Assembly (NCBI RefSeq): GCF_963921235.1
Contig: NC_086097.1
Coordinates: forward strand, 126,606,001-126,670,000
DNA from: Mobula hypostoma
Taxonomy: Eukaryota
DNA length: 64,000 nucleotides
Direction of reading: 5' to 3'
Below, piece by piece: positions 411 to 42,807 of this stretch (its first letter is position 1; every line of letters starts with the position of its first letter). The notes beneath the pieces are model-generated. The model did not search any database. It had not been told where the DNA came from and was given only the letters and a program-made list of their open reading frames with translations. The position numbers and the translations under genes are program-made.

Positions 411-977
411 AACATACATCAAAGTTGCTGGTGAACGCAGCAGGCCAAGCAGCATCTATAGGAAGAGGCGCAGTCGACGTTTCAGGCCGAGACCCTTCGT
501 CAGGACTAACTGAAGGAAGAGTGAGTAAGGGATTTGAAAGCTGGAGGGGGAGGGGGAGATCCAAAATGATAGGAGAAGACAGGAGGGGGAGGGATGGAGC
601 CGAGAGCTGGACAGGTGATAGGCAAAAGGGGATACGAGAGGATCATGGGACAGGAGGTCCGGGAAGAAAGACGGGGGGGGGGTGACCCAGAGGATGGGCA
701 AGAGGTATATTCAGAGGGACAGAGGGAGAAAAAGGAGAGTGAGAGAAAGAATGTGTGCATAAAAATGAGTAACAGCTGGGGTACGAGGGGGAGGTGGGGC
801 CTAGCGGAAGTTAGAGAAGTCAATGTTCATGCCATCAGGTTGGAGGCTACCCAGACGGAATATAAGGTGTTGTTCCTCCAACCTGAGTGTGGCTTCATCT
901 TTACAGTAGAGGAGGCCATGGATAGACATGTCAGAATGGGAATGGGATGTGGAATTAAAATGTGTGGCCACTGGGAG
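411..977 (-). mobile_element. Young 5'-truncated Penelope-like element (GIY-YIG C-terminus, 3' region and hammerhead)
   Basis: The minus ORF 801-1016 contains HFNSTSHSHSDMSIHGLLYCKDEATLRLEEQHLIFRLGSLQPDGMNIDF, a PLE endonuclease C-terminus. Flanking direct repeat ATACAACA at 404-411 and 978-985. Near-identical to the copy starting at 27204. Confidence 0.85.
472..507 (-). ncRNA. Minimal type I hammerhead ribozyme motif (PLE-associated)
   Basis: The minus strand reads AGUC-CUGACGA-AGGGUCUCGGCCU-GAAAC-GUC-GACU: stem I AGUC/GACU, core CUGANGA/GAAA, a stem II hairpin, palindromic ACGU stem III and a GUC cleavage triplet. Confidence 0.85.
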
Positions 978-1799
978 ATACAACAGTTCATCTCTGTGTG
1001 ACAGAACATACATCACAGTACAATAGTCTCTGTTTTATTATTTTGTACATTATTATTGCACATTGGTAAATTATTATTGTGTATATTATTATTCTGCACA
1101 TTATTATTAGTTAAATCTGCACACTGCTAAGTGTGTTTTTAAATGTTGCTTGTTGTAACAAAAGAATTTCCTGCTTGGGATCAGTGAAGTATTTATTATT
1201 ATCATACATTGATTGATTGTACATAAAGTGACACTAAGCACAGGAATGTCTGAACATAAGATGACTGACAGGAAATGATAAAGTAGTAGTGGTGATTTTT
1301 TTGTTTGCCTTCTTAAAGTATTTTAGTGCAATCATATTGTTGCACTGCAGCCTCTTTAACAATACACCTTGTTTTTCTGAGCTTCAGAACAGAGAGCAAA
1401 CCCTAGAGGGAGACAAGGAATTTCTCTCCCACTTCATTGCTGTGTTTTGTCTGGCTGTTATTCCTGGAAAGTTTCCTCCAGAAAAACACCTTTGGCCATA
1501 AGTCCACAAGACCCCATGGTCAGCATGGAGCTTGCTGCAGGAGAAGGATGGTAGGTGGCTGATGCAGCACCCTGGAAGCACATGACCACAGCCGACTCTG
1601 AGTCCGTCCAAAAACTTCAAGCCTCCGACCACCCCTCCGACACCAAGCACCGTATCTGCCGAGCGCTTTGACCCCCGGCCCCGGCCGCCAAGCAACAGGC
1701 AAAGCCGAGGATTCGGGGCCTTCCCCTCCAGAGATTCTGGATCGCACAATTGCAGCGGCAGTGAAAAAGGCATTTCAGAAGTTTTTGAGTTCTATCCCC

Positions 1800-2740
1800 C
1801 TGCAACTCTAGTTTAACTCGTCCTCCCTACCCTGGAGCAGCTCTAGCAGAGCTTCCTGCAAGAATATTAGTCCCCCTCCAATCCAAGTGCAACCCGTCCC
1901 ATCTGTACAGGTCCTACCCTCCCTGAAGGAGAGCCCAATGATCCAAAAACCTGAAGCCCTCCCTCTTGCATCATTTTCTTAACTACGTATTAAACTGTAT
2001 TAGTTTCTTATTTCTAGTTCACTGGTGGCAATCCTGGAGGTCCTGACCTTTAACTTAGCACTTAACTCCCTGAACTCACTCTGCAGGAGCATGTCACCCT
2101 TCCTGTCTATGTTATTGGCACCAAGGTGGACCACGGCCTCTGGCTGCTTCCTCTCCCCCTTAAGAATGCTATGGACTCTATCTCAGATATTCCTGACCTG
2201 GCACCTAGGAGGCAACATACCATTTGGGAATCTCATTCTTGTCCACCAAGCCTTCTCTCTGATTCCCTAACGAATGAATCCTCTGTTACCACTGCACTCC
2301 TCTTCTCCCATTTCTGTCTGCATCATAGAACCAGATATAGTGCCACAGACCTGACTGCTGTGGCTTTCCTGTGCTAGGCTGTCTCTTCGATAATACCCAA
2401 AGCGATATACTTGTTTATTGCAGGGAACAGCCAGAGGGAAACCCTGCACTGGCTGCCTATCCCCTTTCTCTCTCCTGATGGTCACCTGTGTCTTGCGCCT
2501 CATCATTCTGCTATCCTTCCTGGCATTCCCACTGCTCTAATTGCACGATAAGATGGACAGAAAGAAAGAAAGAAAGAGAGAGAGAAACCAGAATATCACC
2601 TTATCCTCTGCCTCTCCTTGCTGAAGCCACTTAAGCCAAAGTCTCAAACTCTCCACTCTAATACTGACCACTCCCACAATGGCTGCTCCCAAAATGTCCA
2701 CTCAGTTTAAACCTAACTTATTTTTATTGGGCTTTGCTAA
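1800..2740 (-). mobile_element. Decayed CR1 LINE 5' part (5'UTR and ORF1 esterase-like remnant)
   Basis: Similar to the CR1 ORF1/5'UTR at 52780-53900 and 36276-36520, including the DL(Y)RxDGLHL-type segment near 1880-1920. Confidence 0.6.
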
Positions 2741-2744
2741 GTGC

Positions 2745-4420
2745 CTAATTACACAATGCTCTCAAGCCCGCCAAATGCATACTCCCTGCTTCCTCAACAC
2801 TACCTTCCCCTCCACCCATCTTTGTATCATCCACAAACTTGGCCACAAAGTAATCAGCTCCGTCATTCAGATCATTAATGTATAACATGAAAAGTAGTAG
2901 ATCCAACACTGATCCCTTTGAAACACCACTAGTCCCTCCAGTCAATCAGAAAAGGCCTCCTTTATCCTCAATCTTTGCCTCCATCCAGTCAGCTAAACTT
3001 CTGTCCTTTCTAGTATCTTTCCTGTAATACCATGGGCTCTTGTTCAGCAGACTCATGTATGGCACCTTGTCAAAAGCCTTCTGAAAATCCAAGCAAACAA
3101 CATCCACTGATTCTCCTTTGTGTATCCAACCCTTTATTTCCTCAAAGATTTCCAACAGATTTGTTAGGCAAGATTTCCCCTTTAGAAAACAATGTTGACT
3201 TCAGCCTATTTTATTGTGTGCCTCCAAATACCACAATACCTCATCATTAATAATGGGCTCTAACATCTTGCCAACAACTGAGCTCAGGGTAACTGGCTTA
3301 TAATTTCCTGTCTTTTGCTTCTTTCCCTTCTTAAAGAGTGGAGTGACATTTGCAATTTTCCAGTCCTCTGGAACCACTCCAAAATCTAGTGATTCTTAAA
3401 TGCTCACTACTAATGCAATCTCTCCAGCTTCCACTTTCAAAAGCCTGGAGTGCAATCCAACTGGTCCAGGTAACTAAGTCACTTACAGATTTCTCAGCTT
3501 CCCAGGCACCTTCTCCTTATAATAACTACTACACTCATTCACTTCTGCCCCCTGATACTCTCAAATTTCTGACATGCTGCTGGTGTCCTCCACAGCGGAC
3601 ACTGATGCAGAATACTTATTTCCTTGTTCCCGTTTACTGCCTCTCCTGCATCATCTTCCAGCAGTCCAATGCCCACTCTTGATTCACTTTTACTCTTTAT
3701 AAATGCCTTCTGTTGGGTTTTGAAAGCTTCCCAGTCCTCTAACTTCCCTCTAATTTTTGCTGTATAACATGGCCTCTCTTTTGCTCTTATGCTGTCTTTG
3801 ACTTTCCTTGTCAGCCTTTATTGCTTCATCCTCCCTTTAGAATACTACTTCATCTTTGAGATAAACTGATCCTGCACCTTTCAAATTGCCCCCAGAATCT
3901 CCAAACTTTGCTGCCCTAAGTCATCCCTTCTAGTTACCACTTCCAATCAACTTTGGACAGCTTCTCTCTCATGCTTCTGTAATGCACACTACAGTACTGT
4001 GATACTGATACTGACTTTATCTTCTCCCCCTCAGACTGCAGGGTGAACTCTATCATATTATGATCACTGCCTCCTAACGGTTGCTTTACCTGAAGCTCGC
4101 TAATCAAATCTGTTTCATTACACAATACCCAATTCAGAAATGACTTTACCTGAGCTGGCTCGACCACTAGGTGCTCTAAAGGCCATAGCCTAGGCATTCT
4201 ACAAATTCCTTCTCTTGGGACCCAGCAACAACCGAATTTTCCTAATCTACCTGCATACTGAAATCCTCCATGACCATCATAACACTGCCCTTTTCACATG
4301 CCTTTTCCATTTCCCATTGTAATTTGTAGCCGTCCTCCTGGCTACTGTTCCAATGTTGCATTTAACTCCCACCACGGTCTTTTTCCCTTGCAGTTTCTTA
4401 ATTCTATGCACAAGGATCCC
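2745..4420 (-). mobile_element. Decayed CR1 LINE ORF2 fragment (EN-RT)
   Basis: Minus ORF pieces with PLGGSDHNMIEF, VCLDFQKAFDKVP and GSVLDLLLFMLYINDL...KFVDDTK. Many frameshifts. Confidence 0.85.
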
Positions 4421-4424
4421 ACCA

Positions 4425-6329: not shown

Positions 6330-7312
6330 CACCCCGTTCCTGGCGCCTATCCCTGGAGGCAGCTAAAATGCTACACCTACTCATTCACCTCCTCCCTCTC
6401 TTCCATTCAGAGCCCCAAACAGTCCTACCAGGTGAGGAAACACTTCACCTGCGAATCTGCGGGGATCGTCTATTGTGACTGGTGCTCCCGATGCGTCCTC
6501 TTCAACATTGGCGTTGTTCGTTGTTCCTTTTTGCACCTTGTGTGTATCAGGTGGCATTTTTGCCATTTTTGTAGCATTTGTTTTTATGAGGCCGAGTTGC
6601 TACCTCAACGCTCAGCCAAGCACAGATGGAAAGCATTCAAGGAGCCAGCCGGATTCAAACTCTTGACTATTCGCCTCGAAGTCCAGTGCTGATGGCTCTA
6701 CACCACTGGCTGGCACTACATTGATGAGATCCGTTGTAAATTGGGGGATCGCTTCATTGAGCACCTCCATTCCATCCTCCAAAAGTGGAACTTCCCGGTG
6801 GCCAAACATTTCAATTTCCATTTCCGTTCCTGTTCCAACATGTCAGTCCATGGCTTCCTCTTGTGCTAAGATGAGGCCACCCTCAGGGTGGAGGAGCATC
6901 ACCTTATATTCCATCTGGGTCGCCTCCAACCTGATGGTTTGGATATTGATTTTCTCCTTTTGGTAAAAAAAATATCCCTCCCCCTCCCTTCTTCTTCTAT
7001 CCTCCACTCTGGCCTCTTACCTCTTCTCTCCTGCCTATCCCCTCCTCCTGGATCCCCCTCCTCCTTCCCTTTTTCCTATGGTACATTCTCCTCTCCTATT
7101 AGATTCCTTCCCCTCCAGCCCTTTACCTTTCCTACCTATCTGGCTTCACCTACCACCTTGCAGCTATCCTCCTTCCCCTCCCCCCACCTTTCTAACCTGG
7201 CGACTTCCCCCTCCCTTTCCAGACCTGAAGAAGGTTCTTGACCATTTATTCATTTTCATAGCTGCTGCCTAACTTGCTGAGTTCCTCCAGCATTTTGTGT
7301 GTGTTGCCTTGG
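6330..7312 (+). mobile_element. Older PLE 3' part (GIY-YIG remnant and pyrimidine-rich 3' region), interrupted by a SINE
   Basis: Translated remnants HFTCESAGIVYCxWCSRC and EEHHLIFHLGRLQPDG. Truncated hammerhead CCTGAAGAAGG near 7224. Confidence 0.75.
6511..6714 (-). mobile_element. tRNA-derived SINE inserted into a PLE
   Basis: Minus-strand head GCCAGCCAGTGGTGTAGAG...GAGTTTGAATCC (A- and B-box-like). Flanking ACATTG repeats at 6505-6510 and 6718-6723. Confidence 0.6.
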
Positions 7313-9795: not shown

Positions 9796-11514
9796 ACTTG
9801 AACTTAAGGAGAGGAGGGGAGAGATATGGATGAGATGTGGTCAAGCATTTTATTAACGATGGTAGATGGAAGCCACAGTATAGAAAGAAGCACATGTACA
9901 GAAACTCTCAACATCTGAGCAAATACATCAGAGAAAGCAAGAGATGGACTCAATTCCATTGCAGGAGGCAGAGCGAGACAAGGCGTAGCTAAGATAGCCC
10001 TGGAAGTCAGTGAACGTTTTCTTTTTTTCCCTCCTTCTCAGTTCCAAAGAAACTTCTTTGACCTGAAACATTAACTCTTTCCCTTTCCTCAAATGCAACC
10101 TAGCCTGCTGAGTGCTTCCAGTATTTTCTGCTTTTAAACATACGATTTTCAGCATCTACAGTATTTGATTTTCAGGAAAATTAGAGGTCAGATGAGCCTT
10201 CACATAAGAGCAACTGGCACATAGAGTGATCAGCAGCAGAGGGCATGGCTGTTTTCATTGGTTGTGTGGTGGAACACTCAGTAGAAACACCAGCTGCAAT
10301 GCAGCTGAAGTCAGAATGGCAACTTTCACTTAACCTGTTTTGCCATTGAAATAACTAAAATATTTACTGAAATTTGGTAATGAATCCACTACTTAAATGG
10401 AGACCTCAAAATCTGTATATAAGACACTAGCAAAAAGCATGCACGACAATCGGAGTTAGCTTTTGTTTTTTTGTGGATTTCATACAAAGAAAATTTTGGA
10501 ATTTTGGAATGGTTCTGACAATTGTGTTTTTCTTAAGATTCATCTTTAATCTATTTCAGATAAACTTTAATGGATTTCTTTGCCACAGAAATCGGGAATT
10601 GAACTATTCAATAATCCATGGTACTAAATTCTTACTGCTTCATAATCAATGACTCCACCCATCCCAGGCACTCCCTCATCTCCATCCTCCCATCAAGTAG
10701 AATATACCAAAGCTTGAAAGCACATACACCAGACTCTACCCTGCTTTTGAATGGTTCCCTAGTACACAATCCACCTTGTTATGATCTTGCACCTTACTGT
10801 CTATACACACAACAGTTTCTCTATAACTGTAACACTTTATTCTGTTACTGCTTTACTTTGTACTACCACCATGCACTGTGCAATTGACTGATCTTGTTTA
10901 ATTAGGGTCTAAATTGACACTTTTCTTGTAGTTTAATTGCCTTTATGCTTGCTTATATGGTTGTACAATTACAGCTTATAATTTTTAGTAATTTGTAGTA
11001 TAGCTGATTCTGTGCTTTTTTGTAATTCCTTTGTCTGCAACCTGTATCATGCCATAAATCTAACTGTATTATAGGCTGTTCTGATCAAGGAATTTTCTCA
11101 TCTGTTCAGTTTAACAGTATAAAATGATCACTACTTCATTGTTCCCTGTCTTTCTTTGTCTTCTTCCTTTAGTTCATACTTAGAGTAGGTTGGTTACTGT
11201 TTTTTCTTTGTTATTAACATCTAATGAAATGGCTGTACCCACAATTTTTACGACTCATTCTCGACTTACGAAGAGCCTTCTGGATGGAATCATCTGCAGA
11301 TCCAACAATCTGTAATGAACCATATGCATTAGCAAGCTTTTCACTGTATGTGAGGCTATAATAGATCAATTTCATTTCCAATCTTCAGATCCACTGAGCT
11401 GTATAATACTGACAAACAGAGTCCCAGGTCTGAAACCAGTCATTCAGGTATATTTGATTTCTACACAATTGTACACAGGGAGGAATACAGCCGACATGCA
11501 AGATCAAAGCTTTT

Positions 11515-17365: not shown

Positions 17366-17367
17366 AT

Positions 17368-19175: not shown

Positions 19176-21744
19176 GTTTCTCGTCTACCCATATGGCCTC
19201 ACTAAGTGGCCATACATTTGGCCATACATTATACATGTGACAATATTAAAGCAATTTACCAGTTTACTAGTCACAATCTCACAACAAGACTGATCCATTC
19301 CCTGTATTTCACTGTTGGCTCTGATAATTCTGATTACAAGGCAGAAGCATAGAGGTGTGAAGGTGTACTTTCAGTATTGACTGCATAGTTGTTACAGAAT
19401 ACCTCGACAGTGCAGGAAGTAAAACTGCAGATGCTGGAGCAGAATTAAACTGGAACACCAAGTATATATCAGAAGCCAAGCAGCAATCTTCAATATTGGT
19501 AGGTAATAGTGAGGCTACTTTGGTATGAGAGTGAAGCTAAACTCAGGGACCCATTACCATCTACAGTCGTAAGATCCATCCTCTAGAGAAACAGGGTGGA
19601 TGCTGAGAGATTGTTTCCCCTTATGGGGAACATTAGGATTTGGGAACAGGGCACAAGGTGCAGAGGCTCGAGGACAATACCACCAAGCTCTAGGACAGTT
19701 TTGATTCTGCTTGAACATGAACTCCTGATTTCTCATTCCACCACATTATGGCCCTTGTACTTTACATGTCTACCTGCACTGCACCTTCCCTGTAACCGTC
19801 ACACAAAATTCTGCATTCAAAGAGGCAGGCGGAACTCAGCAAGTCAGCCAGCATCTGGGGTGGAAATGAACAGCTGTTGTTTCGGATCGAGACCCTCTTC
19901 AGGACTGGAAGGAAAGAAGGGAGGTAACCAGTCCAAAAAAATAGAGGGAAGAGGCGAAAGAAGCAAGAGCTAGCGGGTGATAGGTAGATTTCAGTTTGGA
20001 TGGCTTGCAAAAGCTTTTAACTGTATCTCAGATGAGTGAGATGCAGAAAATTCCTGACAATCCACTATCAAGCTACTTGGATATCCAAATGCTGAAGTCG
20101 GTTTTCATTCATGAGTCCTGGTTCCCATATTCCCTTTCCCCAACCAGTCTTCTTGTACAACTTAATACCAGAAATAGGACTCAAACATTTCCCTCCATAG
20201 ATGCTGCCGGACTTGCTGTATTCCTCTGATGTATTTCAATCAGACCATGAGCTAAGTATTTCTAAAACAGACAAGCCTCCTTTCAGAAATACTTGGTGGG
20301 CTTATAAGCGCTTTGGTTCACTTTGAAAGAATAATGCTCTTTTGGATAGTTTAAAAACAACTTTTAAGAGCACTCTCAGTAAAAGAAAAATTCAAGACCA
20401 TACTAGTTTTAATTTCTGATATTTGCCAAATTACTTTCTCTCTATCCAGGAGAGCTAAAATTTCCCCAATGTTCCTGGGGACAAAACGAAAAAGGATTGC
20501 ATGCATTATAAATAAGGCCAGGGTCTGAGTATGGTTCAGTTTACTATTAAAGTTCACGAAAGCTTACATGTTTAAAACATCAGGAAACAACAGAAGACTG
20601 CCATCGCCTACTCAATTGCAGCCTTTTATTACCATGCGAATAGAATGGCAAAGGGGGAGGGAATTAGGCAGAGTAATTCCCCACCCCACCTACATTTCAA
20701 AAGCACTTCACTAGCTGATACACTTCTGTCGTCATTCTGAAAGATGTGAAAAACACAGCAGGAAACCTTTTCAACGGCTTAAAACACTTTTAAAGTCTTT
20801 CTGTCGTCTACTCAAAAGATAATGCATTGGTTAAAATTACTTTAATTCCATAGTTAGAAATCTCAAAACATTTTAGATACTCCTTGGACTTTTCAGAGAG
20901 GTGGGAGGAGGCCTTTGGTTAACAAGTAGGTACTGGCACTCACAAATGGAAATGTAACCAGACACCTAGCCCCAGGAGAAGGCGTGATCGAGAAAAGAGC
21001 TTGACAGGTTCTATGCATGAGTGAAAAGTCTTTTCTTCACTCTTACTACTTAACTAGTGTGCAAACAAAACAAATTCACTGCTCACAGCAGCAGTCAACG
21101 AAACAATGCAACTCATTTATACTTCTATCAGAGTCCATACTGCAACATTGATTTTTACTTAATATGGCACTGGAAAAGGCCGCTCAGTGCTGGTTTCCAG
21201 CAGCCCACTCAGCTCCATTCCTTACTCTCCTTAGTTTCTTGTGCGACACTGAGATTTGTTCTCTTTCATGGCTCCCTTTGATCTGCTTGGCTCTAACAAC
21301 ACTTTACAGCAGGTCTAGCAACATGCCATTAGAGCTTTATTTAAAAACAGTGAACTTAGAAATGGCGGTTAAAATAGGAGCACTGGTTGGGTGAAGAAAA
21401 AAAAGGGAGTGAAAATATGAGGATGGTACAATTACCTCATGGAGTTCATCTGACAAGATTGCAGTCACAATTAAAAACACAAAATGCTTCAGTCAGCAAG
21501 TTTGAATTCATTGCATACACGCAGGGCATGGATGTAATGGAAAATTAGCTGTGTGTAGCAGCAGCACAGTACTTTTCAAAACAAGGACAAACAATTTAAT
21601 GCCAATTTAAATGATCAGATAATACATAACTCAGCTGTGTGCAAAATAAAGAATAAAATAAACAATGGAACATTAGTGAAAGGTTGAGAGAGAAATATAG
21701 TCCAAAGTAGTATTAAAGATTTTCAGGGGTGAAGAATTGACAAT

Positions 21745-21885
21745 TCAGGCCGAGAGCTGAAGAAGGGTCTTGGCCTGAAACGTTGACTGTTTACTCTTTT
21801 CCACAGATGCTGCCTGGCCTGCTGAGCTCCTCCAGCATTTTGTGTGTGCTGCTTGGATTTCCACCATCTGCAGATTTTCTTGTGT
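21745..21885 (+). mobile_element. PLE 3' end fragment with hammerhead core
   Basis: CTGAAGAAGGGTCTTGGCCTGAAACGTTGAC followed by the same 3' terminal sequence as the other PLE copies. Confidence 0.7.
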
Positions 21886-22829
21886 TAAGGATTTTCAGGT
21901 TGTTTCAAGAACTTGATGGCAGTGGGGAATGATCTGTTGTTGAACCTTGATTTGTGGATCTTATATCTCTTGCCTGGAAGAGGACCTGGTCCAAGTGGTA
22001 GGGGTCTCTAACAATGGATTCATGGAGACATTGTTTCTTGCTGCTGTCCTTGAGGACGGGGAGAGATGTACCCAGCTGGCTAAGTGCACCAAATGCTGTA
22101 GCCGAGCCAATCTGGTGAGATCGAGAATGGCTTCAGGTTGAGTAGCCCGGGTGTGTCGTTGTGCTGTGGCCTGTGTCCTGGAGTGAGGCACGACTCGGTG
22201 TTTGGCCAATTTAAACGCTGGCGCAGATAGACTGGGAATTCCGAGTGTGGAGGCAAGGGTCGTGCTGATTTTGCTAGCTCTCCCATCACGTTCATTCCTC
22301 TCTCCGGTGGCTGTCGTCTCTGTGGATTTTGCCCCGCTAATGTAAGGAAGTTGAGATCAAGGCTTGGGCCTGCTCTGGCTGCTCCAGGGAGCAGATCTAA
22401 GGACTCAATCTGGTTCGGAATGCTGTCATTTGCATCTATTGTTTGCATGATGTGTGTGTTTTTCCTTCTTTCTCTGTGCAGTGGTTATGGGTTTTCTTTA
22501 TTTTTAATTGGGTTCTTTGAGTTTCCTGCTTTGTGGCTGCCTATAAGCAAACAAATCTCAAGGTGTATAATTTATACATTCATTGATAATAAATGTACTT
22601 TGATTTGATTTGAAATTTGGAGTTAAGACGTTTGCAGTTAATTGAACATAGCGGATATAAGGGATGACACATTGCGTGCAGCTCCAATGGGAATCATCAA
22701 ACATTCCCATTCAGGACTAATACAGCTGAAGTCCACAGGCACAGCCATGTAAGCACCATTGTTTTAGACATTTAAAGCATCTATCGATACTCAAAATTGA
22801 CAGCTCCAGGGGCACAGGCTCAGGTTGTG

Positions 22830-25635: not shown

Positions 25636-26044
25636 AACCTTCAGTATTTTCCCTCTCTTTTTGCACTATTTATTTAACTGATATTAAATATATATATGTA
25701 TACTTCTTATTGTAAATTATAGCTTTTATTAATATGTATTGCATTGTACTGCTGCCCCAAAGCAACAAATTTCACAACGTATGCTGGTGATATGAAACCT
25801 GATTCTGATTCTGGTCAAATGTCCTTGCACCAAAACTGACAAATTAGATGCAAGGTGTTGTTGAGCAAATACTTGGACATGGAATTGGACAGAGGTGAGA
25901 ACTGAACAGAAGAAAATATCTGCCTTTCTTATCAAGCAGTCCCTAGAGTCAAAATATAAATTACTTCTTTTCTCCAGTTCTAAGGGCTCTGGGAAATGGC
26001 CTTTTTGAGGGATCTGCAGACTTATCCCACAGGTATGAAGGTAA

Positions 26045-26605
26045 CAAACACAAAATGCTGGAGGAACTCAGCAGGCCAGGCAGCATCTACAGAAAGGAGT
26101 AAACAGTCAATGTTTCAGGTTGAAAACCTTCCTCAGGACTGCCTGGGTAGCCTCCAACCTGATGGCATGAACATTAATTTCTCAATCTTCTGGTAAGTTG
26201 CTGCTCCCCCCACCCCCCTTCACCATCCCCATTCCCGTATCTCCCTCTCTCCTTATCTCCTTACCCATCCATCACCTCCTTCTGGTGCTCCTCCCCCTTC
26301 CCTTTCTACCCTCTCCTATCAGATTCCCCCTTCTTCAGTCCTTTATCTCTTCCCCCTCCCCCTTTCCTGGTTTCACCTCTCACCTACCACCTTGCACTTC
26401 TTCCCCCCCTCACCCTGCCCCCCTTGCTCTTTTTCCTTCCAGTCCCGATGTAGGCTTTCGGCCGTAAGTGTCGACTGTACTCTTTTCCATAGATACTGCT
26501 GAATTCCTCCAGCATTTTGTGTGTGCTGCTCTGGATTTCCAGGTTCTGCAGATTTTCCCGTTTTTGTGTGTGTTGCTTTGATTTCCAGTGTCTGCAGACT
26601 TCCTC
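26045..26605 (+). mobile_element. Older fold-back PLE (inverted 3' copy 26045-26140 plus a sense 3' part)
   Basis: A minus-strand terminus with a hammerhead-like motif at 26105-26140 is joined to plus-strand LGSLQPDGMNINFS and the 3' region. Confidence 0.75.
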
Positions 26606-27266
26606 GTGTTTGTGGCAGAGGGTGTTTCATGGATGCCACATTTGGGGTGTTCTGCAATCTTTGCACCTCTTCTGCCGTGTGCTCAGTCATTTCGCGAGTG
26701 CTCCACTGTTTTAAGCAGGCGCGGACAAGGGAATCCCATGGGTCCATAAAGATGCAGCAATTGTCTCCCTCCCACACTGTCAGATTGCTGACCGGTGCCA
26801 TATCAACCAGTAATATGGCATCACGCACCCCCAAGTAATTCATTAGCACACTTCGTGGAAAGCAACTCCCATTTGTACAAACCAATAAATGCAGCCTCAT
26901 CAGCAACAACCCAAAAAAAGATAGCTGTCAGCAACAACAAAAGAAATCCAGTAAAATATACAAGGATATGTTTACACTACTGCCTTCCCTCCCCACCTCC
27001 CACTCACTGGAACTAGTCCCCGCATTTACTGCCCTCGCCAGTTCCTGGAAAGGAATGTTGCTGATTACGTGTGGATTAAAGGCGGCTAGTGAGGCTGTAC
27101 ATGGTGTTACGACTGAAGATAAATGATGCTCTGGTAGATTACATTGCCCAGATCTGTCATAAGAAACAGCATGTAGATAGATTAAGAAGAATCTATGTTT
27201 CTAGCAACATACATCAAAGTTGCTGGTGAACGCAGCAGGCCAAGCAGCATCTATAGGAAGAGGCGC

Positions 27267-27302
27267 AGTCGACGTTTCAGGCCGAGACCCTTCGTCAGGA
27301 CT
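27267..27302 (-). ncRNA. Minimal type I hammerhead ribozyme motif
   Basis: AGUC CUGACGA AGGGUCUCGGCCU GAAAC GUC GACU on the minus strand. Confidence 0.85.
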
Positions 27303-27878
27303 AACTGAAGGAAGAGTGAGTAAGGGATTTGAAAGCTGGAGGGGGAGGGGGAGATGCAAAATGATAGGAGAAGACAGGAGGGGGAGGGATAGAGCCGAGA
27401 GCTGGACAGGTGATAGGCAAAAGGGGATACGAGAGGATCATGGGACAGGAGGTCGGGAAGAAAGACGAGGAGGGGGGGGTGACCCAGAGGATGGGCAAGA
27501 GGTATATTCAGAGGGACAGAGGGAGAAAAAGGAGAGTGAGAGAAAGAATATGTGCATAAAAATGAGTAACAGATGGGGTACGAGGGGGAGGTGGGGCCTT
27601 AGTGGAAGTTAGAGAAGTCGATGCTCATGCCATCAGGTTGGAGGCTACCCAGACGGAATATAAGGTGTTGTTCCTCCAACCTGAGTGTGGCTTCATCTTT
27701 ACAGTAGAGGAGGCCGTGGATAGACATGTCAGAATGGGAATGGGATGTGGAATTAAAATTAGGATTAAAATTAAAATTAAAATCGGCTCTATCCCTCCCC
27801 CTCCTGTCTTCTCCTATCATTTTGCATCTCCCCCTCCCCCTCCAGCTTTCAAATCCCTTACTCACTCTTCCTTCAGTT

Positions 27879-27914
27879 AGTCCTGACGAAGGGTCTCGGC
27901 CTGAAACGTCGACT
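27879..27914 (+). ncRNA. Minimal type I hammerhead ribozyme motif
   Basis: AGTCCTGACGAAGGGTCTCGGCCTGAAACGTCGACT on the plus strand. Confidence 0.85.
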
Positions 27915-29764
27915 GCGCCTCTTCCTATAGATGCTGCTTGGCCTGCTGCGTTCACCAGCAACTTTGATGTATGTTGCTTGAATTTCCAGCATCTGCAGAA
28001 TTCCTGTTGTTTATCTATGTTTCTAACTATTTTCGTACGTGTGGTAGATATCACCATTTAATATAGTCCACATACACCTAAATAATTTGAATTTAGGAAT
28101 ACTGAATTATAATTCCATTCAGGCAATGCCATTGAGTTCTGTTTACTTTCTCCTGTTCACAGAGACTGCGGGTAGCATTTCATTTATTCTACACGGTCTT
28201 CTCAGTAATAATGTATTCATTCATCTCCTTAGATCTAGTCAAGGTAGGTTTGAGCTGTGATCTCCATTGAGGCCATGGCTTGAGCTTAGTTGTGTTTTAA
28301 GTTTTTAAGGTTTGTAGTGATGGTTTTGGGGACAGAGAGGGGACTTAAGGGTCAGGTTAAAGACATGGGAGAATTAGAGGACAGGATGGGAACTAAGCCC
28401 CCACTCTGCATTTGAAGGCCAGCGACGTGGACGTGGTTGGATGTTGGGCTGGCGGACCAGCAAAGATGCGGACATGTGAACCACTGGGGTTGATAAGCCA
28501 TCGGCATGTTCCAGGATCAGAACTCCAATGCAAGCAGGAGGTGCAAGGGCCAGTGTCGTCCTAGTTACGCAGGTCAGTGGGACCAGAGTTCGAGGCCCAG
28601 TATTCGGGATCTCGTCATCGACGAATCCAGAGCTCAAGGCTTGGAATTGGGGACCTCATCCAGGATCTTCATTCGCTGTCATCAACGATAATGAAGATCG
28701 AAGACCAAAGGTTGAACGTAGGTCCAGAAACAAGACCTGACGGCCGGTGCTCTGAGTCTGCAAATCTCTGCAAGTCCATTGGGGAAAGTGAAGGCCCAGT
28801 GTCCGCAAATCCATGAGCCCCCCAGGGGCCAAAGTCGGCCTGTCCTAGGGTTAGAGGACTGTGAGTGTGCACTGGTGGGAAGGAGGAACAGGGCTTATTA
28901 CTGCTGTTGCTTTGTCACTTGTATGTTCTGTACTGTTTTGTTGTGTGTTTTTCTGCCAAGCATTGTGGGCATGCTATGTTAGTACCAGAACGTGTGGTGA
29001 CACTTGTGGGCTGCCCCCAGCACGTCTTTGGGTGTGTTGGTTGCTAATGCAAATGATGCATTTCACTGTATGTTTTGATATTAATGAATCAGAACCCGCA
29101 TCTGGAGGAAAGGAGATGCCCTGATCCTTTAACAATGCACAACTAATGATCAATGTTAACAATGGAATGAAACTAACTTTTATCTTTTGTCTATTAATTA
29201 ACTTTTAAACAGTAAGTGCTGAATAGCCAACTCAGCTGAACCAAAAGCAAATACATGTTTACTTCACCCACTTAAAAATGTGCTATTGCACAGATAATGA
29301 AAAGGTCTTTAATTATTTGAAGACAAGTATTGAAAGACATGCTGAATAGTAAAAGGTCTGGTTGAACCCTGTATTGCTGATTCACACTAATTGCCAAATG
29401 CAGTGATACAATTAAAAATTCCATTTATTCAGTTTCTAATATGTATAACAAGGCTGGAACACTGAATTCAAAGTAACAAAATTACTCCCCTTGACCCAGA
29501 GCAGGTGGTAGAGATGTGTTAAGCTCTTTAGGTAAGGAAAATATAGCTATGAGGAGACAGGGTGCCAATTCTCGGATATTTGGCTCAGCATGAATGTAGG
29601 TTGTAGATGCGGGTTGTTGTAGCCGGTGCATCGAGAGAAATGTACAACAGGCGGCTGCTGCCCAGTATTTAGCTTAACAAAGAGCCCAGAGCAACAGTAT
29701 AGTGGATTTGAATCTCCAACTAGACAATTATCAAGAGTGATTGTTCGAATAAACAGAAGTTCAC

Positions 29765-29972
29765 ATGCACAAAATGCTGGAGGAACTCAGTGAGCCAGGC
29801 AGCATCAGTGCAGGGGAATAAACAGTCGCCTCCTTCCTTTCCAGTCCTGATTAAGGGCCCCAGCCCGAAACATTGAATGTTTATTCATTTCCACAGCTGC
29901 CGACTCACTTACTGAGTTCCTCCAGCATTTTGCGTGTGATCCTCAAGATTTCCAGCATCTGCAGAATATCTT
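29765..29972. mobile_element. Older short fold-back PLE remnant
   Basis: Inverted CACAAAATGCTGGAGGAACTCAG / CTGAGTTCCTCCAGCATTTTG termini with a degenerate hammerhead near 29843-29878. Confidence 0.7.
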
Positions 29973-30191
29973 GTATTTATTGAATTCACGTAACTGTTTT
30001 ACTATGAGCCTTGATTTCAAGGTACTTATGGAAAAACCATGTATTCACATTTTGCTGTATACTTTACTGATTTTGGAATTAGGGTCTTGGATAAAATATC
30101 CTATTTCATCCTTTCTTTCATACCTACTTTACTTTCATAATGGCCCGACTGATTCCATTTCTAATTCCCACTGAATATTAATTTACAGGTA

Positions 30192-30382
30192 AACAACAGG
30201 AATTCTGCAGATGCTGGAAATTCAAGCAACACACATCAAAGTTGCTGGTGAACGCAGCAGGCCAGGCAGCATCTCTAGGAACAGGTACAGTCGACGTTTC
30301 AGGCCGAGACCCTTCGTCAGAGACCCTTCCTAGAGATGCTGCCTGGCCTGCTGCGTTCACCAGCAACTTTGATGTGTGTTGC
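30192..30382. mobile_element. Miniature fold-back PLE with 56-bp inverted arms and a 15-bp TSD
   Basis: TSD ATTAATTTACAGGTA at 30177-30191 and 30383-30397. Arms at 30226-30281 and 30327-30382. Confidence 0.92.
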
Positions 30383-33895: not shown

Positions 33896-36519
33896 ACATA
33901 GAAACATAGAAAATAGGTGCAGGAGTAGGCCATTCGGCCCTTCGAGCCTGCACCGCCATTTATTATGATCATGGCTGATCATCCAACTCAGAACCCCGCC
34001 CCAGCCTTCCCTCCATACCCCCTGATCCCCGTAGCCACAAGGGCCATATCTAACTCCCTCTTAAATATAGCCAATGAACTGGCCTCAACTGTTTCCTGTG
34101 GCAGAGAATTCCACAGATTCACCACTCTCTGTGTGAAGAAGTTTTTCCTAATCTCGGTCCTAAAAGGCTTCCCCTCTATCCTCAAACTGTGATCCCTCGT
34201 TCTGGACTTCCCCAACATCGGGAACAATCTTCCTGCATCTAGCCTGTCCAATCCCTTTAGGATCTTATACGTTTCAATCAGATCCCCCCTCAATCTTCTA
34301 AATTCCAACGAGTACAAGCCCAGTTCATCCAGTCTTTCTTCATATGAAAGTCCTGCCATCCCAGGAATCAATCTGGTGAACCTTCTTTGTACTCCCTCTA
34401 TGGCAAAGATGTCTTTCCTCAGATTAGGGGACCAAAACTGCACACAATACTCCAGGTGTGGTCTCAGCAAGGCCTTGTACAACTGCAGTAGTACCTCCCT
34501 GCTCCTGTACTCGAATCCTCTCGCTATAATTAGGCTAACCGGTCTATAATTCCCCGGTTTCTCTCTCCCTCCTTTTTTAAAAAGTGGAGTTACATTAGCC
34601 ACCCTCCAATCCTCAGGAACTAGTCCAGAATCTAATGAGTTTTGAAAAATTATCACTAATGCATCCACTATTTCTTGGGCTACTTCCTTAAGCACTCTAG
34701 GATGCAGGCCATCTGGCCCTGGGGATTTATCTGCCTTCAATCCCTTCAATTTACCTAACACCACTTCCCTACTAACATGTATTTCACTCAGTTCCTCCAT
34801 CTCACTGGACCCACTGTCCCTTACTATTTCTGGAAGATTATTTATGTCCTCCTTAGTGAAGACAGAACCAAAGTAATTATTCAATTGGTCTGCCATGTCC
34901 TTGCTCCCCATAATCAATTCACCTGTTTCTGTCTGCAGGGGACCTACATTTGTCTTTACCAGTCTTTTCCTTTTTACATATCTATAAAAGCTTTTACAGT
35001 CCGTTTTTATGTTCTCTGCCAGTTTTCTCTCATAATCTTTTTTCCCCTTCCTAATTAAGCCCTTTGTCCTCCTCTGCTGAGCTCTGAATTTCTCCCAGTC
35101 CTCAGGTGAGCCACTTTCTCTGGCTAATTTGTATGCTACTTCTTTGGAATTGATACTATCCCTAATTTCTCTTGTCAGCCACGGGTGCACTACCTTCCTT
35201 GATTTATTCTTTTGCCAAACTGGAATGAACAATTGTTGTAGTTCATCCATGCAACCTTTAAATGCTTGCCATTGCATATCCACCGTCAATCCTTTAAGTG
35301 TCATTTGCCAGTCTATCTTAGCTAATTCACGTCTCATACCTTCAAAGTTACCCCTCTTTAAGTTCAGAACCTTTGTTTCTGAATTAACTATGTCACTCTC
35401 CATATTAATGAAGAATTCCACCATATTATGGTCACTCTTACCCAAGGGGCCTCTCACGACAAGATCGCTAATTAACCCGTCCTCATTGCTCAAAACCCAG
35501 TCCAGAATAGCCTGCTCTCTAGTTGGTTCCTCGACATGTTGGTTCAAAAAACCATCCCGCATACATTCCAAGAAATCCTCTTCCTCAGCACCTTTACCAA
35601 TTTGGTTCACCCAGTCTACATGTAGATTGAAGTCACCCATTATAACTGCTGTTCTTTTATTGCACACATTTCTAATTTCCTGTTTAATACCATCTCCGAC
35701 CTCACTACTACTGTTAGGTGGCCTGTACACAACTCCCACCAGCGTCTTCTGCCCCTTGGTGTTACGCAGCTCTACCCATATCGATTCCACATCTTCCCGG
35801 TTTATGTCCTTCCTTTCTATTGCGTTAATCTCTTCTCTAACCAGCAACGCCACCCCATCTCCCCTTCCTTCATGTCTATCCCTCCTGAATATTGAATATC
35901 CCTGAACGTTGAGCTCCCATCCCTGGTCACCCTGGAGCCATGTCTCTGTGATCCCAACTATATCATAATCATTAATAACAATCTGCACTTTCAATTCATC
36001 CACCTTATTATGAATGCTCCTTGCATTGACACATAAAGCCTTCAGGCGCTCTTTTACAACTCTCTTAGCCCTTGTACAATTATGTTGAAAAGTGGCCCTT
36101 TTTAATGCTTGCCCTGGATTTGTCGGCCTGCCACTTTTACTTTTCTCCTTTGTACTTTTTGCTTCTACACTCACTTTACACCCCTCTGTCTCTCTGCACT
36201 GGTTCCCATCCCTCTGTTGTGAACTAACCTCCTCACGCCTAGCCTCTTTAATTTGATTCCCACCCCCCAACCATTCTAGTTTAAAGTCACCTCAGTAGCC
36301 CCCGCTAATCTCCCTGCTAGGATATTGGTCCCCCTAGGATTCAAGTGTAACCCGTCCTTTTTGTACAGGTCACGCCTGCGCCAAAAGAGGTCCCAATGAT
36401 CCAAAAACTTGAATCCCTGCCCCCTGCTCCAATCCCTCAACCACGCATTTATCCTCCACCTCATCGCATTCCTACTCTCACTATCGCGTGGCACAGGCAG
36501 TAATCCCGAGATTACTACC
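33896..36519 (-). mobile_element. Young CR1 (ORF1 3' end and open ORF2) with an internal RT deletion
   Basis: ORF1 esterase-like end (VVISGLLPVP...DGLHLNPRG), ORF2 at 33988-36270 and an (ATGTTTCT)n tail at 33896-33913. Confidence 0.92.
33988..36270 (-). CDS. CR1 ORF2 derivative, 760 aa: AP endonuclease, linker and C-terminus, lacking the RT catalytic core
   Basis: Uninterrupted ORF. RPVSL is joined directly to (I)IARGFEY, so the DFxKAFD, GVPQGS and FADD motifs present in the sister copy at 39270-42275 are missing. Confidence 0.75.
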   Translation of the reverse strand: MGGGNQIKEARREEVSSQQRDGNQCRETEGCKVSVEAKSTKEKSKSGRPTNPGQALKRATFQHNCTRAKRVVKERLKALCVNARSIHNKVDELKVQIVINDYDIVGITETWLQGDQGWELNVQGYSIFRRDRHEGRGDGVALLVREEINAIERKDINREDVESIWVELRNTKGQKTLVGVVYRPPNSSSEVGDGIKQEIRNVCNKRTAVIMGDFNLHVDWVNQIGKGAEEEDFLECMRDGFLNQHVEEPTREQAILDWVLSNEDGLISDLVVRGPLGKSDHNMVEFFINMESDIVNSETKVLNLKRGNFEGMRRELAKIDWQMTLKGLTVDMQWQAFKGCMDELQQLFIPVWQKNKSRKVVHPWLTREIRDSINSKEVAYKLARESGSPEDWEKFRAQQRRTKGLIRKGKKDYERKLAENIKTDCKSFYRYVKRKRLVKTNVGPLQTETGELIMGSKDMADQLNNYFGSVFTKEDINNLPEIVRDSGSSEMEELSEIHVSREVVLGKLKGLKADKSPGPDGLHPRVLKEVAQEIVDALVIIFQNSLDSGLVPEDWRVANVTPLFKKGGREKPGNYRPVSLIIARGFEYRSREVLLQLYKALLRPHLEYCVQFWSPNLRKDIFAIEGVQRRFTRLIPGMAGLSYEERLDELGLYSLEFRRLRGDLIETYKILKGLDRLDAGRLFPMLGKSRTRDHSLRIEGKPFRTEIRKNFFTQRVVNLWNSLPQETVEASSLAIFKRELDMALVATGIRGYGGKAGAGF

Positions 36520-38648: not shown

Positions 38649-38777
38649 ATCAATCTCTTACTAGCTCTTCCTTCCGTTAGTCCTGATGAAGGGTCTCGGC
38701 CCGAAACGTCGACTGTACCTCTTCCTAGAGATGCTGCCTGGCCTGCTGCGCTCTCCAGCAAATTTGATGTGTGTTGC
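38649..38777 (+). mobile_element. Short PLE insertion with hammerhead and 7-bp TSD
   Basis: TSD TTCAAGT at 38642-38648 and 38778-38784, immediately before the Rex1 FADD codons. Confidence 0.85.
38679..38714 (+). ncRNA. Minimal type I hammerhead ribozyme motif
   Basis: AGTC CTGATGA AGGGTCTCGGCCC GAAAC GTC GACT, with a GGG/CCC stem II and an extra A after the core. Confidence 0.85.
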
Positions 38778-38974
38778 TTCAAGTTTGCTGACGACACCAC
38801 TGTTGCTGGCTGAATCAAAGGTGGTGACAAATCAGCATATAGGAGGGAGATTGAAAATCTGGCTGAGTGGTGCCACGACAACAACCTGTTACTCAATATC
38901 AGCAAGACCAAGGAGCTGAGTATTGACTTCAGGAGGAGGAAACCAGAGGTCCATGAGGCAGTCCTCAGAGACTG

Positions 38975-39178: not shown

Positions 39179-39269
39179 GTGTATTTGCTCATCACGAAAT
39201 AAAATACAGCAGAAACAGGCACGTTATAAATCAAAATTTCCATTTAGTAGTAATTAAAAACCATAAAAA

Positions 39270-42200
39270 CCAGGTGAAAAGTAAAAGTGGCAGGCCGGCA
39301 AATCCAGGGCAAAAATCAAAAAGGGACACTTTTCAACATAATTGTATAAGGGCTAAGAGTGTTGTAAAAGCAAGCCTGAAGGCTTTGTGTGTCAATGCCA
39401 GGAGCATTCGTAACAAGGTGGATGAATTGAATGTGCAGATAGTTATTAATGAATATGATTTAGTTAGGATCACAGAGAAATGGCTCCAAGGTGACCAAGG
39501 ATGGGAGCTCAACATTCAGGGATATTCAACATTCAGGAGGGATAGACATGAAAGGTGGGGTAGCATTGCTGGTTAGAGAGGAGATTAATGCAATAGAAAG
39601 AAAGGACATTAGCCGGGAGGATGTGGAATCGATATGGGTAGAGCCGCATAACACTAAGGGTCAGAAAACGCTGGTGGGAGTTGTGTACAGGCCACCTAAC
39701 AGTAGTAGTGAGGTTGGGGATGGCATTAAATAGGAAATTAGAAATGCGTGCAATAAAGGAACAGCAGTTATAATGGGCGACTTCAATCTACATATAGATT
39801 GGGTGAACCAAATTGGTAAGGGTGCTGAAGAAGAGGATTTCTTGGAATGTATGCAAGATAGTTTTCTGAACCAACATGTCGAGGAACCAACTAGACAGCA
39901 GGCCATTCTGGACTGGGTATTCAGCAATGACGAAGGGTTAGTTAGCAATCTTGTCATGCGAGGCCCCTTGGGTAAGAGTGACCATAATATGGTGGAATTT
40001 TTCATTAAGATGGAGAGTGACACAGTTAATTCAGAAACAAAGGTTCTGAACTTAAAGAAGGGTAACTTTGAAGGTATGAGACGTGAATTAGCTAAGATAG
40101 ACTGGCAAATGACACTTATTTAAAGGGTTGACGGTGGATATGCAATGGCAAGCATTTAAAGATCGCATGGATGAACTGCAACAATTGTTCATCTCAGTTT
40201 GGCAAAAGAATAAACCAGGGAAGGTAGTGCACCCGTGGCTGACAAGGGAAATTGGGGATAGTATCAATTCCAAAGAAGAAACGTACAAATTAGCCAGAAA
40301 AAGTGGCTCACCTGAGGACTGGGAGAAATTCAGAGTCCAGCAGAGGAGGACAAAGGGCTTAATTAGGAAAGGGAAAAAAGATTATGAGAGAAAGCTGGCA
40401 GGGAACATAATAACTGACTGTAAAAGCTTTTATAGATATGTGAAAAGAAAAAGATTGGTTAAGACAAATGTAGGTCCCTTACAGTCAGAAACAGGTGAAT
40501 TGATCATGGGGAACAAGGACATGGCAGACCAATTGAATAACTACTTTTGTTCTGTCTTCACTAAGGAGGACATAAATAATCTTCCGGAAATAGTAAGGGA
40601 CCGAGGGTCTAGTGAGATGGAGGAACTGAGGGAAATACATGTTAATAGGTAAGTGTTGTTAGGTAAATTGAAGGGATTGAAGGCAGATAAATCCCCTGGG
40701 CCAGATGGACTGCATCCCAGAGTGCTTAAGGAAGTAGCACAAGAAATAGTGGATGCATTAGTGATAATTTTTCAAAACTCTTTAGATTCTGGATTAGTTC
40801 CTGAGGATTGGAGGGTGGCTAAGGTAACACCGCTTTTTAAAAAAAGAGGGAGAGAGAAACCGGGGAATTATAGACTGGTAAGCCTGACATCGGCGGTGGG
40901 GAAAATGCTAGTCAGTTATCAAAGATGTGATAACAGCACACTTGGAAAGCGGTGAAATCATCAGACGAAGTCAGCATGGATTTGTGAAAGGAAAATCATG
41001 TCTGACGAATCTCATAGAATTTTTTGAGGATGTAACTAGTAGAGTGGATAGGGGAGAACAAGTGGATGTGGTGCATTTGTATTTTCGAAAGGCTTTTGAC
41101 AAAATCCCACACAGGAGATTAGTGTGCAAACTTAAAGCACACGGTATTGGGGGTATGGTATTGATGTGGATAGAGAATTGGTTGGCAGACAGGAAGCAAA
41201 GAGTGGGAATAAACATGACCTTTTCAGAATGGCAGGCAGTGATGAGTGGGGTACCGCAAGGCTCAGTGCTGGGACCCCAGTTGTTTACAATATATATTAA
41301 TGACTTAGACGAGGGAATTAAATGCAGCATCTCCAAGTTTGCGGATGACACAAAGCTGGGCAGCAGTGTTAGCTGTGAGGAGGATGCTAAGAGGATGCAG
41401 GGTGACTTGGATAGGTTAGGTGAGTGGGCAAATTCATGGTAGATGCAATTTAATGTGGATAAATGTGAGTTTATCCACTTTGGTGGCAAGAACAGGAAAA
41501 CAGATTATTATCTGAATAGTGGCCGATTAGAAAAAGGGGAGGTGCAACGGGACCTGGGTGTCATTATACACCAGTCATTGAAAGTGGGCATGCAGGTACA
41601 GCAGGCGGTGAAAAAGGCAAATGGTATGCTGGCATTTATAGCGAGAGGATTCGAGTACAGGAGCAGGGAGGTACTACTGCAGTTGTACAAGGCCTTGGTG
41701 AGACCACACCTAGAGTATTGTGTGCAGTTTTGGTCCCCTAATCTGAGGAAAGACATTCTTGCCATAGAGAGAGAGTACAAAGAAGGTTCACCAGATTGAT
41801 TCCTGGGATGGCAGGACTTTCATATGATGAAAGACTGGATCGGCTAGGCTTATACTCTCTGGAAGTTAGAAGATTGAGGGGGGATCTTATTGAAATGTAT
41901 AAAATCCTAAAATTGGACAGGCTAGATGCAGGAAGATTGTTCCCAATGTTGGGGAAGTCCAGAACGAGGAGTCACAGTTTGAGGATAAAGGGGAAGCCTT
42001 TTAGGACTGAGATGAGGAAAAACTTCTTCACACAGAGAGTGGTGAATCTGTGGAATTGTCTGCCACAGGAACCAGTTGAGGCCAGTACATTGGCTATATT
42101 TAAGAGGGAGTTAGCTAAGGCCCTTGTGGCTAAAGGGATCAGGGGGTATGGAGAGAAGGCAGGTGCAGGGTTCTGAGTTGGATGATCAGCCATGATCATA

Positions 42201-42275
42201 CTGAATGGCTGTGCAGGCTCGAAGGGCTGAATGGCCTACTCCTGCACCTATTTTTTATGTTTCTGTGTTTCTATA
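39270..42275 (+). mobile_element. CR1 LINE, near-complete ORF2 with a few frameshifts and stops (sister of 33896-36519)
   Basis: LKALCVNARSIRNK through FADDTK to the C-terminus, with an ATGTTTCT-type tail. Highly similar to the minus-strand copy. Confidence 0.92.
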
Positions 42276-42635
42276 TTATTTAAAATACAAGTGTTTAAGT
42301 TATCTTTCTGTTTGAGATGGTTTTATTTTAATAAAGATGTTAATTAATGTAGACTCGTGCACAAAATTCCTACCTATTAATGGCCAGAACTTCCTTCTGG
42401 AGATTGGCTACATGGTGCTGCAATTACACCTTAAGGTGTATTGTAGCCCCAATTCTAAATGGAGAAAACAAGCCATGTCTATAGAACAATAAAAGAACTC
42501 TTAGTCATATATCATACAATTTCCATAAAATACGTCTGTTTTTAACTATCTTAATACCTTAAAATTCTGCTTCCTTTTATAAATGCAGATAGCCACTTCC
42601 AAGGGAAAAAGACCGCAAAGGGAACTCTTACCATA

Positions 42636-42807
42636 AACAACAGGAATTCTGCAGATGCTGGAAATTCAAGCAACACACATCAAAGTTGCTGGTGAACGCA
42701 GCAGGCCAGGCGGCATCTCTAGGAAGAGGTGCAGTCGACGTTTCAGGCCGAGACCCTGACGAAGTCCTGACGAAAGGTCTCGGCCTGAAACGTCGACTGC
42801 ACCTCTT
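42636..42807. mobile_element. Miniature fold-back PLE with an 11-bp TSD and an intact hammerhead
   Basis: TSD CTCTTACCATA at 42625-42635 and 42803-42813, overlapping the arm by 5 nt. Arms at 42724-42755 and 42776-42807. Confidence 0.88.
42763..42798 (+). ncRNA. Minimal type I hammerhead ribozyme motif
   Basis: AGTC CTGACGA AAGGTCTCGGCCT GAAAC GTC GACT. Confidence 0.8.

Follow-up and report, generated by a model that had tools for sequence, protein, structure and literature searches.

Minimal type I hammerhead ribozymes have been known from Penelope-like elements (PLEs) since 2014; what is new here is a family of such elements in a ray, which by its sequence features appears to be of the Neptune type. 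The family was analyzed in a stretch of 64,000 nucleotides (nt) of Mobula hypostoma (NC_086097.1:126,606,001-126,670,000), called the window below, and all coordinates are positions in this window. Five copies of a 36-nt motif are present. This 36-mer is most probably the minimal type I hammerhead of the pseudo-long terminal repeat (pseudo-LTR) of a young Neptune-type PLE, selected in the master element, with the copies in the window as by-products.

In the parts of the 2014 description compared here (Cervera and de la Pena 2014, PMC4209133), monomers of the minimal PLE hammerhead did not cleave and dimers showed low cleavage. About 4,000 motifs per genome were counted in coelacanth and about 9,000 in Xenopus. 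The pair G10.1-C11.1 was a consensus of more than 80% and not universal, with G.U in Xenopus tropicalis(1) and in cichlids, among others. The ray motifs resemble these hammerheads in the core, the base after A9, the loop-less palindrome, the short helix I and the U-rich 5' flank, and C15.2-G16.2 without a loop is found in most of the published rows. The position in a pseudo-LTR, the mostly solitary truncated copies and the pairs on opposite strands 100-700 bp apart are also shared. In contrast, the ray motifs have a short helix II with 4 bp, of which two are G.U pairs in the main subfamily, and the part of the 2014 alignment that was compared contains no cartilaginous fish. The density of strict motifs was 78 per Mb, which describes one selected window and is no basis for genome-wide extrapolation; within the window it is far above the density implied by the coelacanth and Xenopus counts.

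The best-studied relative for comparison is PAc, a Poseidon element of Anolis carolinensis (Frangieh et al. 2024, PMC11167929). According to the sections of that study used here, two internal start sites of the reverse transcriptase (RT) bound a tail of 30-40 nt, the RNA is used mainly in its uncut form, and cleavage depends on the element protein and is dispensable for insertion in vitro. PAc and the ray family are alike in having a tail past the hammerhead, in inserting from uncut RNA, in extending both target strands and in using AT-rich targets. PAc differs in belonging to the Penelope/Poseidon clade and in an open reading frame (ORF) that begins inside the ribozyme, whereas the ray relatives have a Neptune-type Cys linker. 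No reading frame through the motif that is common to young and old ray copies was seen by eye, and a frame like that of the anole element was rejected, as young and old copies differ by insertions and deletions. Cleavage of PAc was demonstrated with protein, whereas the ray family is known here from sequence alone.

The Neptune clade, as far as its description was compared (Craig et al. 2021, PMC8557442), shares with the ray family the RT, a CX2-5CxxC linker, a GIY-YIG endonuclease, 5' truncation, inverted arms and a tail at one end; the window differs in having no full-length or tandem copy. Animal non-LTR retrozymes, in the portions compared (PMC7229834; bioRxiv 10.64898/2026.07.22.740005), also have a type I hammerhead, kinship to pseudo-LTRs and many solitary copies. 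They are head-to-tail non-coding repeats, whereas the ray copies are dispersed, variably truncated and in some cases carry coding sequence. Head-to-tail hammerhead units were absent from the window, and endonuclease sequence was kept. The same preprint describes hammerhead-bearing repeats derived from pseudo-LTRs in one cartilaginous fish. A description of the ray family was not found in the literature on shark and ray hammerheads or in the 2014 supplement (file 1 excepted). When metagenome and viral contigs were scanned for the pattern, 0, 20 and 1 loci were obtained; 0/21 of these matched four ray and shark Penelope proteins (tblastn), and they were left aside. Two metagenome contigs (L003 and L014) carried other minimal hammerheads with the same layout by eye and no detectable Penelope protein nearby.

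Hammerhead motifs and the young insertions

The motifs that the preliminary description had placed at 472 (-), 27267 (-), 27879 (+), 38679 (+) and 42763 (+) were found at exactly these coordinates and strands, and the degenerate motif was matched with 0 mismatches. Their assignment to the minimal type I hammerheads with a loop-less palindromic helix III was also correct with respect to topology, the 12/12 core and the C-G palindrome without a loop in 5/5 motifs. Each motif is composed of helix I with 4 bp, the core C3-A9, an extra A, helix II with 4 bp and a 4-nt loop, G12-A15.1, the C-G palindrome, U16.1 and C17. The catalytic core (C3-A9, G12-A15.1, U16.1 and H17) is complete in all five, and helices I and II can both be formed. 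The single unpaired base between 9 and 10.1 is an A in every motif, and C15.2-G16.2 with a zero-length loop 3 occurs in each. The pair 10.1-11.1 is G-C only at 38679, G.U in three of the five and A-U at 42763.

A strict descriptor of the type I minimal hammerhead, written for this analysis, gave 5 matches on both strands of the window, exactly the five motifs; in 200 dinucleotide-resampled windows the mean was 0.01 and the maximum 1. The proposed check with covariance models gave a different result, as the Rfam scan of the window returned no hammerhead family at E≤1. Two sub-threshold hairpin matches to mir-3926 were obtained at 30254-30354. An identity as mir-3926 was rejected because this region is the long hairpin of an inverted insertion and the score is under the gathering threshold. 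Near-perfect hairpins of this kind could be misannotated as, or processed like, precursor microRNAs. Apart from the five motifs, a sixth 12/12 core that has lost the 5' arm of helix I is located at 30289-30320 (-), a half motif at 42737 (-), and decayed motifs in 9 older copies, in which 6/7 to 11/12 core bases are kept.

The five motifs are carried by four insertions rather than five, because 27267 (-) and 27879 (+) are inverted arms, 199/200 identical, within one 13-bp target site duplication (TSD); the preliminary count therefore holds for the motifs and not for the insertions. A 5'-truncated insertion at about 410-975 contains the motif at 472..507 (-) with a 12/12 core and G10.1.U11.1, the last 57 codons of the GIY-YIG endonuclease, an 8-bp TSD and a short 3' end. 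The head-to-head inverted insertion at 27199..28012 is composed of a minus arm (27199-27759) with the endonuclease end and a short 3' end, and a plus arm (27783-28012) with a long 3' end. The optional tail of about 35 nt at 27977..28012 (+) lies between the short and long element 3' ends. The minus-arm motif at 27267..27302 (-) has a 12/12 core and G.U at 10.1-11.1. In the plus-arm motif at 27879..27914 (+) helix I is formed by 27879-82 with 27911-14, helix II by 27891-902, the core by 27883-89 and 27903-06, and the palindrome by 27906-09; the predicted cut is after C27910.

The insertion at about 38649-38779 (about 130 nt, 7-bp TSD) lies within the RT fragment of a long interspersed nuclear element (LINE). 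Its motif at 38679..38714 (+) has the canonical G10.1-C11.1 pair and U7. Two further young insertions are inverted and include both strands. The one at 30187..30381 (15-bp TSD, left end long, right end short) contains the sixth core. The one at 42633..42805 (11-bp TSD) has arms that are 31/32 complementary; its tailed minus arm ends at helix II, and the plus arm is short. The motif of this insertion at 42763..42798 (+) has a 12/12 core and A10.1-U11.1, and its 3' two-thirds are paired by the adjoining inverted arm. Intact TSDs were present at 5/5 young motif-bearing insertions checked. The arm junctions of all three young inverted insertions (27760-27782, 30320-30326 and 42757-42763) show short templated duplications or slippage repeats, and the first of these is a run of AT-rich six-base repeats.

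The Penelope-like element and its copies

The motif had been described as lying on the sense strand of the element downstream of the endonuclease ORF. This was confirmed for 2/2 young copies that keep the ORF end (472 (-) and 27267 (-)), in which it follows the stop by about 295 nt. These two copies retain the last 49-57 residues of the GIY-YIG endonuclease, 82-86% identical to a Hypanus sabinus protein (tblastn). The ray protein matched by the endonuclease ends (relative P0001) carries a CX3CxxC linker as judged by eye, and GIY-YIG domain matches were obtained on relatives P0001 (weak) and P0023. The longest Penelope-like copy, older and broken, at 49336..50960 (+), comprises the RT core, a CX4CxxC linker at 50310-50336 between RT and endonuclease, the endonuclease end and a decayed hammerhead at 50844. 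RT and endonuclease were covered at 49336-50595 by tblastn with ray and shark proteins, and this copy had 26 relatives at E≤1e-10, with ray and shark proteins foremost.

A CX2-5CxxC linker marks Neptune and Nematis and is lacking in Penelope/Poseidon, according to the part of the clade description used here (PMC8557442). The family was called Neptune-type from the linker and the order of RT and endonuclease rather than from a tree. The young copies are too short to contain the linker, and it was therefore assigned to them by proxy. Pfam gave no match on six broken frames of the window. Among the 42/108 window ORFs scanned, only LINE-type domains (5 ORFs) and no host gene were recognized, in a search that small host exons would escape. 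The ray proteins P0001, P0005 and P0006 are publicly annotated as host genes; since they consist largely of the Penelope-like ORF, ray gene models include element sequence.

The 3' ends of the element were found at two sites, about 27977 and about 28012 in coordinates of the 27879 arm, which are about 67 and 102 nt past the predicted cut. These two sites are probably start sites of reverse transcription. A DNA run was aligned to 27783-28045 (263 bases), and 86,406 of its 27,606,599 contigs were placed. The long end at 28012 was the top loose end in this run (495 contigs) and had AT-rich flanks. One short and one tailed end were present in 4/4 inverted insertions having two true 3' ends, and 5' truncation, inverted arms and a tail of 30-40 nt at one end all occur in the family of the window. 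In twelve contigs of the DNA run, with the joints 27978-28013 and 27979-28012, the short end is linked to the tailed end of the other strand; this tail-to-tail arrangement is opposite to the head-to-head one of the insertions in the window.

The preliminary description had called the family recently active, and its youth was borne out by the intact TSDs, the near-identical inverted arms (55/56 and 31/32 in addition to the pair mentioned above) and the low CpG decay in the motif, which was about 6-11% per base and 15% at the free N7. Recent activity was less well supported: the window contains no intact ORF, and at least half of the sampled element words were found under at least four organism labels (runs with a share below 0.2 left out). 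As the young copies differ by 0-9 of 86 bases, several master elements are indicated.

Older copies are distributed over the window. The older inverted insertion at 26038..26611 (both strands) has decayed hammerheads at 26105-26140 (-) and 26441-26476 (+) and one short and one tail end. In that at 29768..29975 (both strands), the 5' end of the minus arm is at the predicted cut site within ±1 nt, and a decayed hammerhead is present at 29843 (+). The copy at 21740..21886 (+) begins at the core after a short helix II fold-back, has a U at C17 and retains the tail, and in the copy at 6708..7312 (+) the endonuclease end is present and the hammerhead, at 7221, is partly deleted. Other decayed motifs are located at 10052 (+), 19876 (-) and 61132 (+), and a Penelope-like 3' end without motif at 62408 (+). 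Two LINE copies of the endonuclease-RT type (33896-36291 and 39272-42268) are 92-93% identical, inverted and about 3 kb apart; the minus-strand copy has an open frame of 767 codons from which most of the RT has been internally lost. The 42633 insertion is adjoined by a minisatellite (42901-43597) made up of about 20 units of 33 bp, which has an open Pro-rich frame and no Pfam match.

Conservation of the motif and cutting of RNA

The core had been expected to be better conserved than the flanks, which was true between subfamilies and not clearly so within the young family. The majority letters of the older copies (n=9) agreed with the young copy at 33/36 positions of the motif, versus 9/33 in the upstream flank, 7/16 immediately downstream and 36/48 at a greater distance downstream. 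Four of the six loose-end places listed for the DNA run are borders of the 36-mer, at 27879/80 (469 and 193 contigs) and 27914/15 (183 and 444 contigs), and at these borders other subfamilies run on with different flanks. Across the flank-diverged subfamilies the 12 core bases, the palindrome and both helices are retained, while the free position N7 varies. These comparisons indicate that the motif is under selection between subfamilies.

Within the young family there was 1 non-CpG variant site in the 36 nt of the motif versus roughly 15 in about 200 flanking nt. The motif is thus not clearly less variable than its flanks, and the conservation test is therefore informative only between subfamilies. 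Inside the motif 8/9 listed variants were CpG-type transitions at 3-15%, the pattern expected if inserted copies decay neutrally. The ninth was position 11.1, where C made up 21% of the depth and U about 79%; because C is present in just this fraction, G10.1.U11.1 is the majority master state.

It is unlikely that the motif of the dominant young subfamily has ceased to be catalytic and persists either as a structural or sequence signal, such as a protein-binding site, a promoter or splice element or a pause site for the RT, or as a passenger. The prevalence of U11.1 in the DNA run would fit such a loss, as would the predicted fold of the bare 36-mer, a rod in which G5-A6-N7-G8 are paired with the palindrome and C17. 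The absence of covariation among the 9 distinct copies, the insertion of the anole element in vitro without cleavage (in the part of PMC11167929 compared) and the splice-acceptor-like sequence after the motif also point in this direction. However, G.U at 10.1-11.1 occurs in several members in the published rows compared (PMC4209133), and the core bases, palindrome and helices have been kept across subfamilies in which N7 varies.

The splice-acceptor-like sequence is a run of pyrimidines closed by AG, in many cases with ATG after it, at 27918-27933 and at the equivalent positions of older copies, about 20 nt past the cut; it was recognized by eye in most copies. For a Drosophila virilis element an intron end at its hammerhead is mentioned in the 2014 text compared here (PMC4209133). 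At 27865-27893 an upstream tract of pyrimidines is able to base-pair with the catalytic core and the first part of helix II, and it might act as an off-switch or as a pause site for the RT.

The preliminary description had also proposed that the copies cut read-through or host transcripts or process tandem element RNA. Processing of tandem element RNA by the hammerhead is plausible from the analogy to published elements. Cutting of other transcripts was not supported, in view of the spanned cut site, the inverted-arm duplexes and the behavior of damaged-core variants. All five copies extend across the predicted cut site and were therefore copied from RNA that had either not been cut or been religated. 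Three motifs (42763, 27267 and 27879) are held in duplexes with the inverted arm of the same insertion, and one transcript cannot carry both 27267 and 27879 as sense because they lie on opposite strands. The sole same-strand pair at an element-like distance is 38679 and 42763 (4.1 kb), of which 42763 is sealed in a 31-bp hairpin. With at least 30 nt of flank the predicted probability of helices I and II was ≤0.002 in four copies and ≤0.13 at 38679. The active dimer of the master sequence was predicted at -9.5 to -14.7 versus -20 and -28 kcal/mol and was less stable than two monomers.

Variants with damage at C17, 15.2 and 16.2 were less frequent in a probable RNA run, at 0.3-0.4 of the DNA level, like neutral CpG sites (0.3). 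Since efficient cutting should enrich such variants, their depletion speaks against it. No loose end at the cut site was found among the best 12 of 526 in the contigs of the DNA run. The copies in the window therefore appear to be passive remnants and not to cut host RNA.

It is accordingly quite unlikely that the dispersed copies are working ribozymes which, helped by their very high number, pair in trans or across kilobases and in this way cut read-through or host transcripts. Six copies with intact cores, the same-strand pair 4.1 kb apart and the abundance of possible partners, given the motif density in the window and the number of contigs placed on 263 bases, would favor such cutting, as would the rise in RNA/DNA depth ratio downstream of the motif. 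Against it are the inverted-arm pairing of three motifs, the lack of enrichment of damaged cores, the absence of a cut-site loose end within the set given above and the lack of a recognized host gene among the ORFs scanned. In addition, the published accounts compared report that monomers do not cut and dimers cut weakly (PMC4209133), or that protein is required (PMC11167929).

The same probable RNA run showed six A>G sites (27851-53, 27927, 27929 and 27957) at 3.5-9.1%, compared with 0.06-0.7% in DNA, among 36 listed variants. These sites were 5.5-109-fold higher in the probable RNA run, while all other changes were at most 3-fold higher. The excess was confined to the sense strand of the element, with no matching T>C excess. 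This looks like adenosine-to-inosine (A-to-I, ADAR-like) editing of duplexes formed by inverted insertions. Penelope repeats are among the most edited repeats in Xenopus tropicalis in the data compared from PMC10636886.

Several observations weigh against a selected hammerhead whose dispersed copies are mere by-products. The older copies were found via the motif, which inflates their motif identity. Compensatory changes occurred in 0/8 pairs among the 9 distinct motif copies, not above shuffles; because no compensatory change supports the helices, ribozyme function rests on the conserved core. A10.1-U11.1 at 42763 was considered as covariation and rejected, as it is a single change next to a rearranged junction. 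Membership in Neptune rests on sequence features rather than phylogeny. The folding energies leave out tertiary contacts, Mg2+ and proteins, and they disfavor even the active dimer of the master. The RNA run is guessed to be RNA and stems from another sample, and its contigs give no strand, ends or levels. Moreover, the older arm 29768-29827 starts at the cut site within one base, one contig joint of the DNA run (depth 49, orientation not given) links the tail end, via three bases, to the first base past the cut, and the ratio of RNA to DNA depth, about 0.08 across the motif, is 0.13-0.19 downstream of it, a rise that could reflect a cut, a start site or a splice acceptor. The arm, the joint and the ratio may hint at some cutting.

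That the copies descend as monomers from a non-autonomous tandem retrozyme with circular RNA, derived from the pseudo-LTR, and are not truncated copies of the autonomous element is very unlikely: most copies are short and centered on the motif, the part of the preprint compared (bioRxiv 10.64898/2026.07.22.740005) has such pseudo-LTR-derived elements in one cartilaginous fish, and 2 DNA contigs show a direct tandem motif duplication, but the 5' ends are variable and in several cases reach the endonuclease or RT coding region, the 3' ends are fixed and of the element type, and the window is devoid of head-to-tail units. The tandem duplication (joint 27913 to 27879) was also seen in 1 contig of the probable RNA run and could form an active dimer in cis.

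Proposed life cycle and use of the breakpoints

In the preferred reading, a minimal hammerhead selected in the master and left behind in by-product copies, the ribozyme of the master element most likely cleaves tandem RNA of the element itself, slowly and under certain conditions. Two copies would pair via the four-base palindrome to form helix III, probably with help from the element protein, to judge from published relatives. The reverse transcriptase would start inside the RNA at 67 or 102 nt past the cut site, and uncut RNA would be copied across the ribozyme before an early stop. Priming on both target strands would then give the head-to-head insertions with one short and one tailed end; this anatomy was observed, and the mechanism is proposed to explain it. 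After insertion the copies would decay neutrally through CpG loss. In host read-through RNA they would be mostly misfolded or sealed in long duplexes and would be A-to-I edited rather than cut.

The 5' ends of the arms cluster at the ribozyme, as 8/11 arms of inverted insertions have their start in the interval from -47 to +10 relative to the cut site. A wider reading, which we regard as doubtful, is that ray genomes hold on the order of 100,000 minimal hammerheads with intact cores and that their 5' breakpoints are a fossil record of the state of the RNA in the germ line. Internal initiation of reverse transcription at the 5' pseudo-LTR would then yield cDNAs of 100-150 nt reaching the 5' end of the RNA. 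Most inserts would stop at the 5' edge of the ribozyme, owing to a start site or to a fold of uncut RNA, and a minority at the cut site. Leads in this direction are that 1 of the 8 clustered arms starts at the cut site and that the contig joint connects the tail end to the first base past the cut.

As it stands, a Neptune-type family of a ray is added to the class described in 2014, which is of little importance in itself, and its practical value is statistical. The inverted insertions may be one of the main sources of edited double-stranded RNA in rays, a role that Penelope repeats have in Xenopus tropicalis. If the wider reading is true, breakpoints that coincide exactly with the cut site would be evidence for cleavage by Penelope hammerheads in vivo, which the anole study, in the sections compared, could not show from RNA sequencing (PMC11167929). 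Given the abundance of the family, genome-wide counts of 5' breakpoints could test whether Penelope hammerheads cut in vivo.

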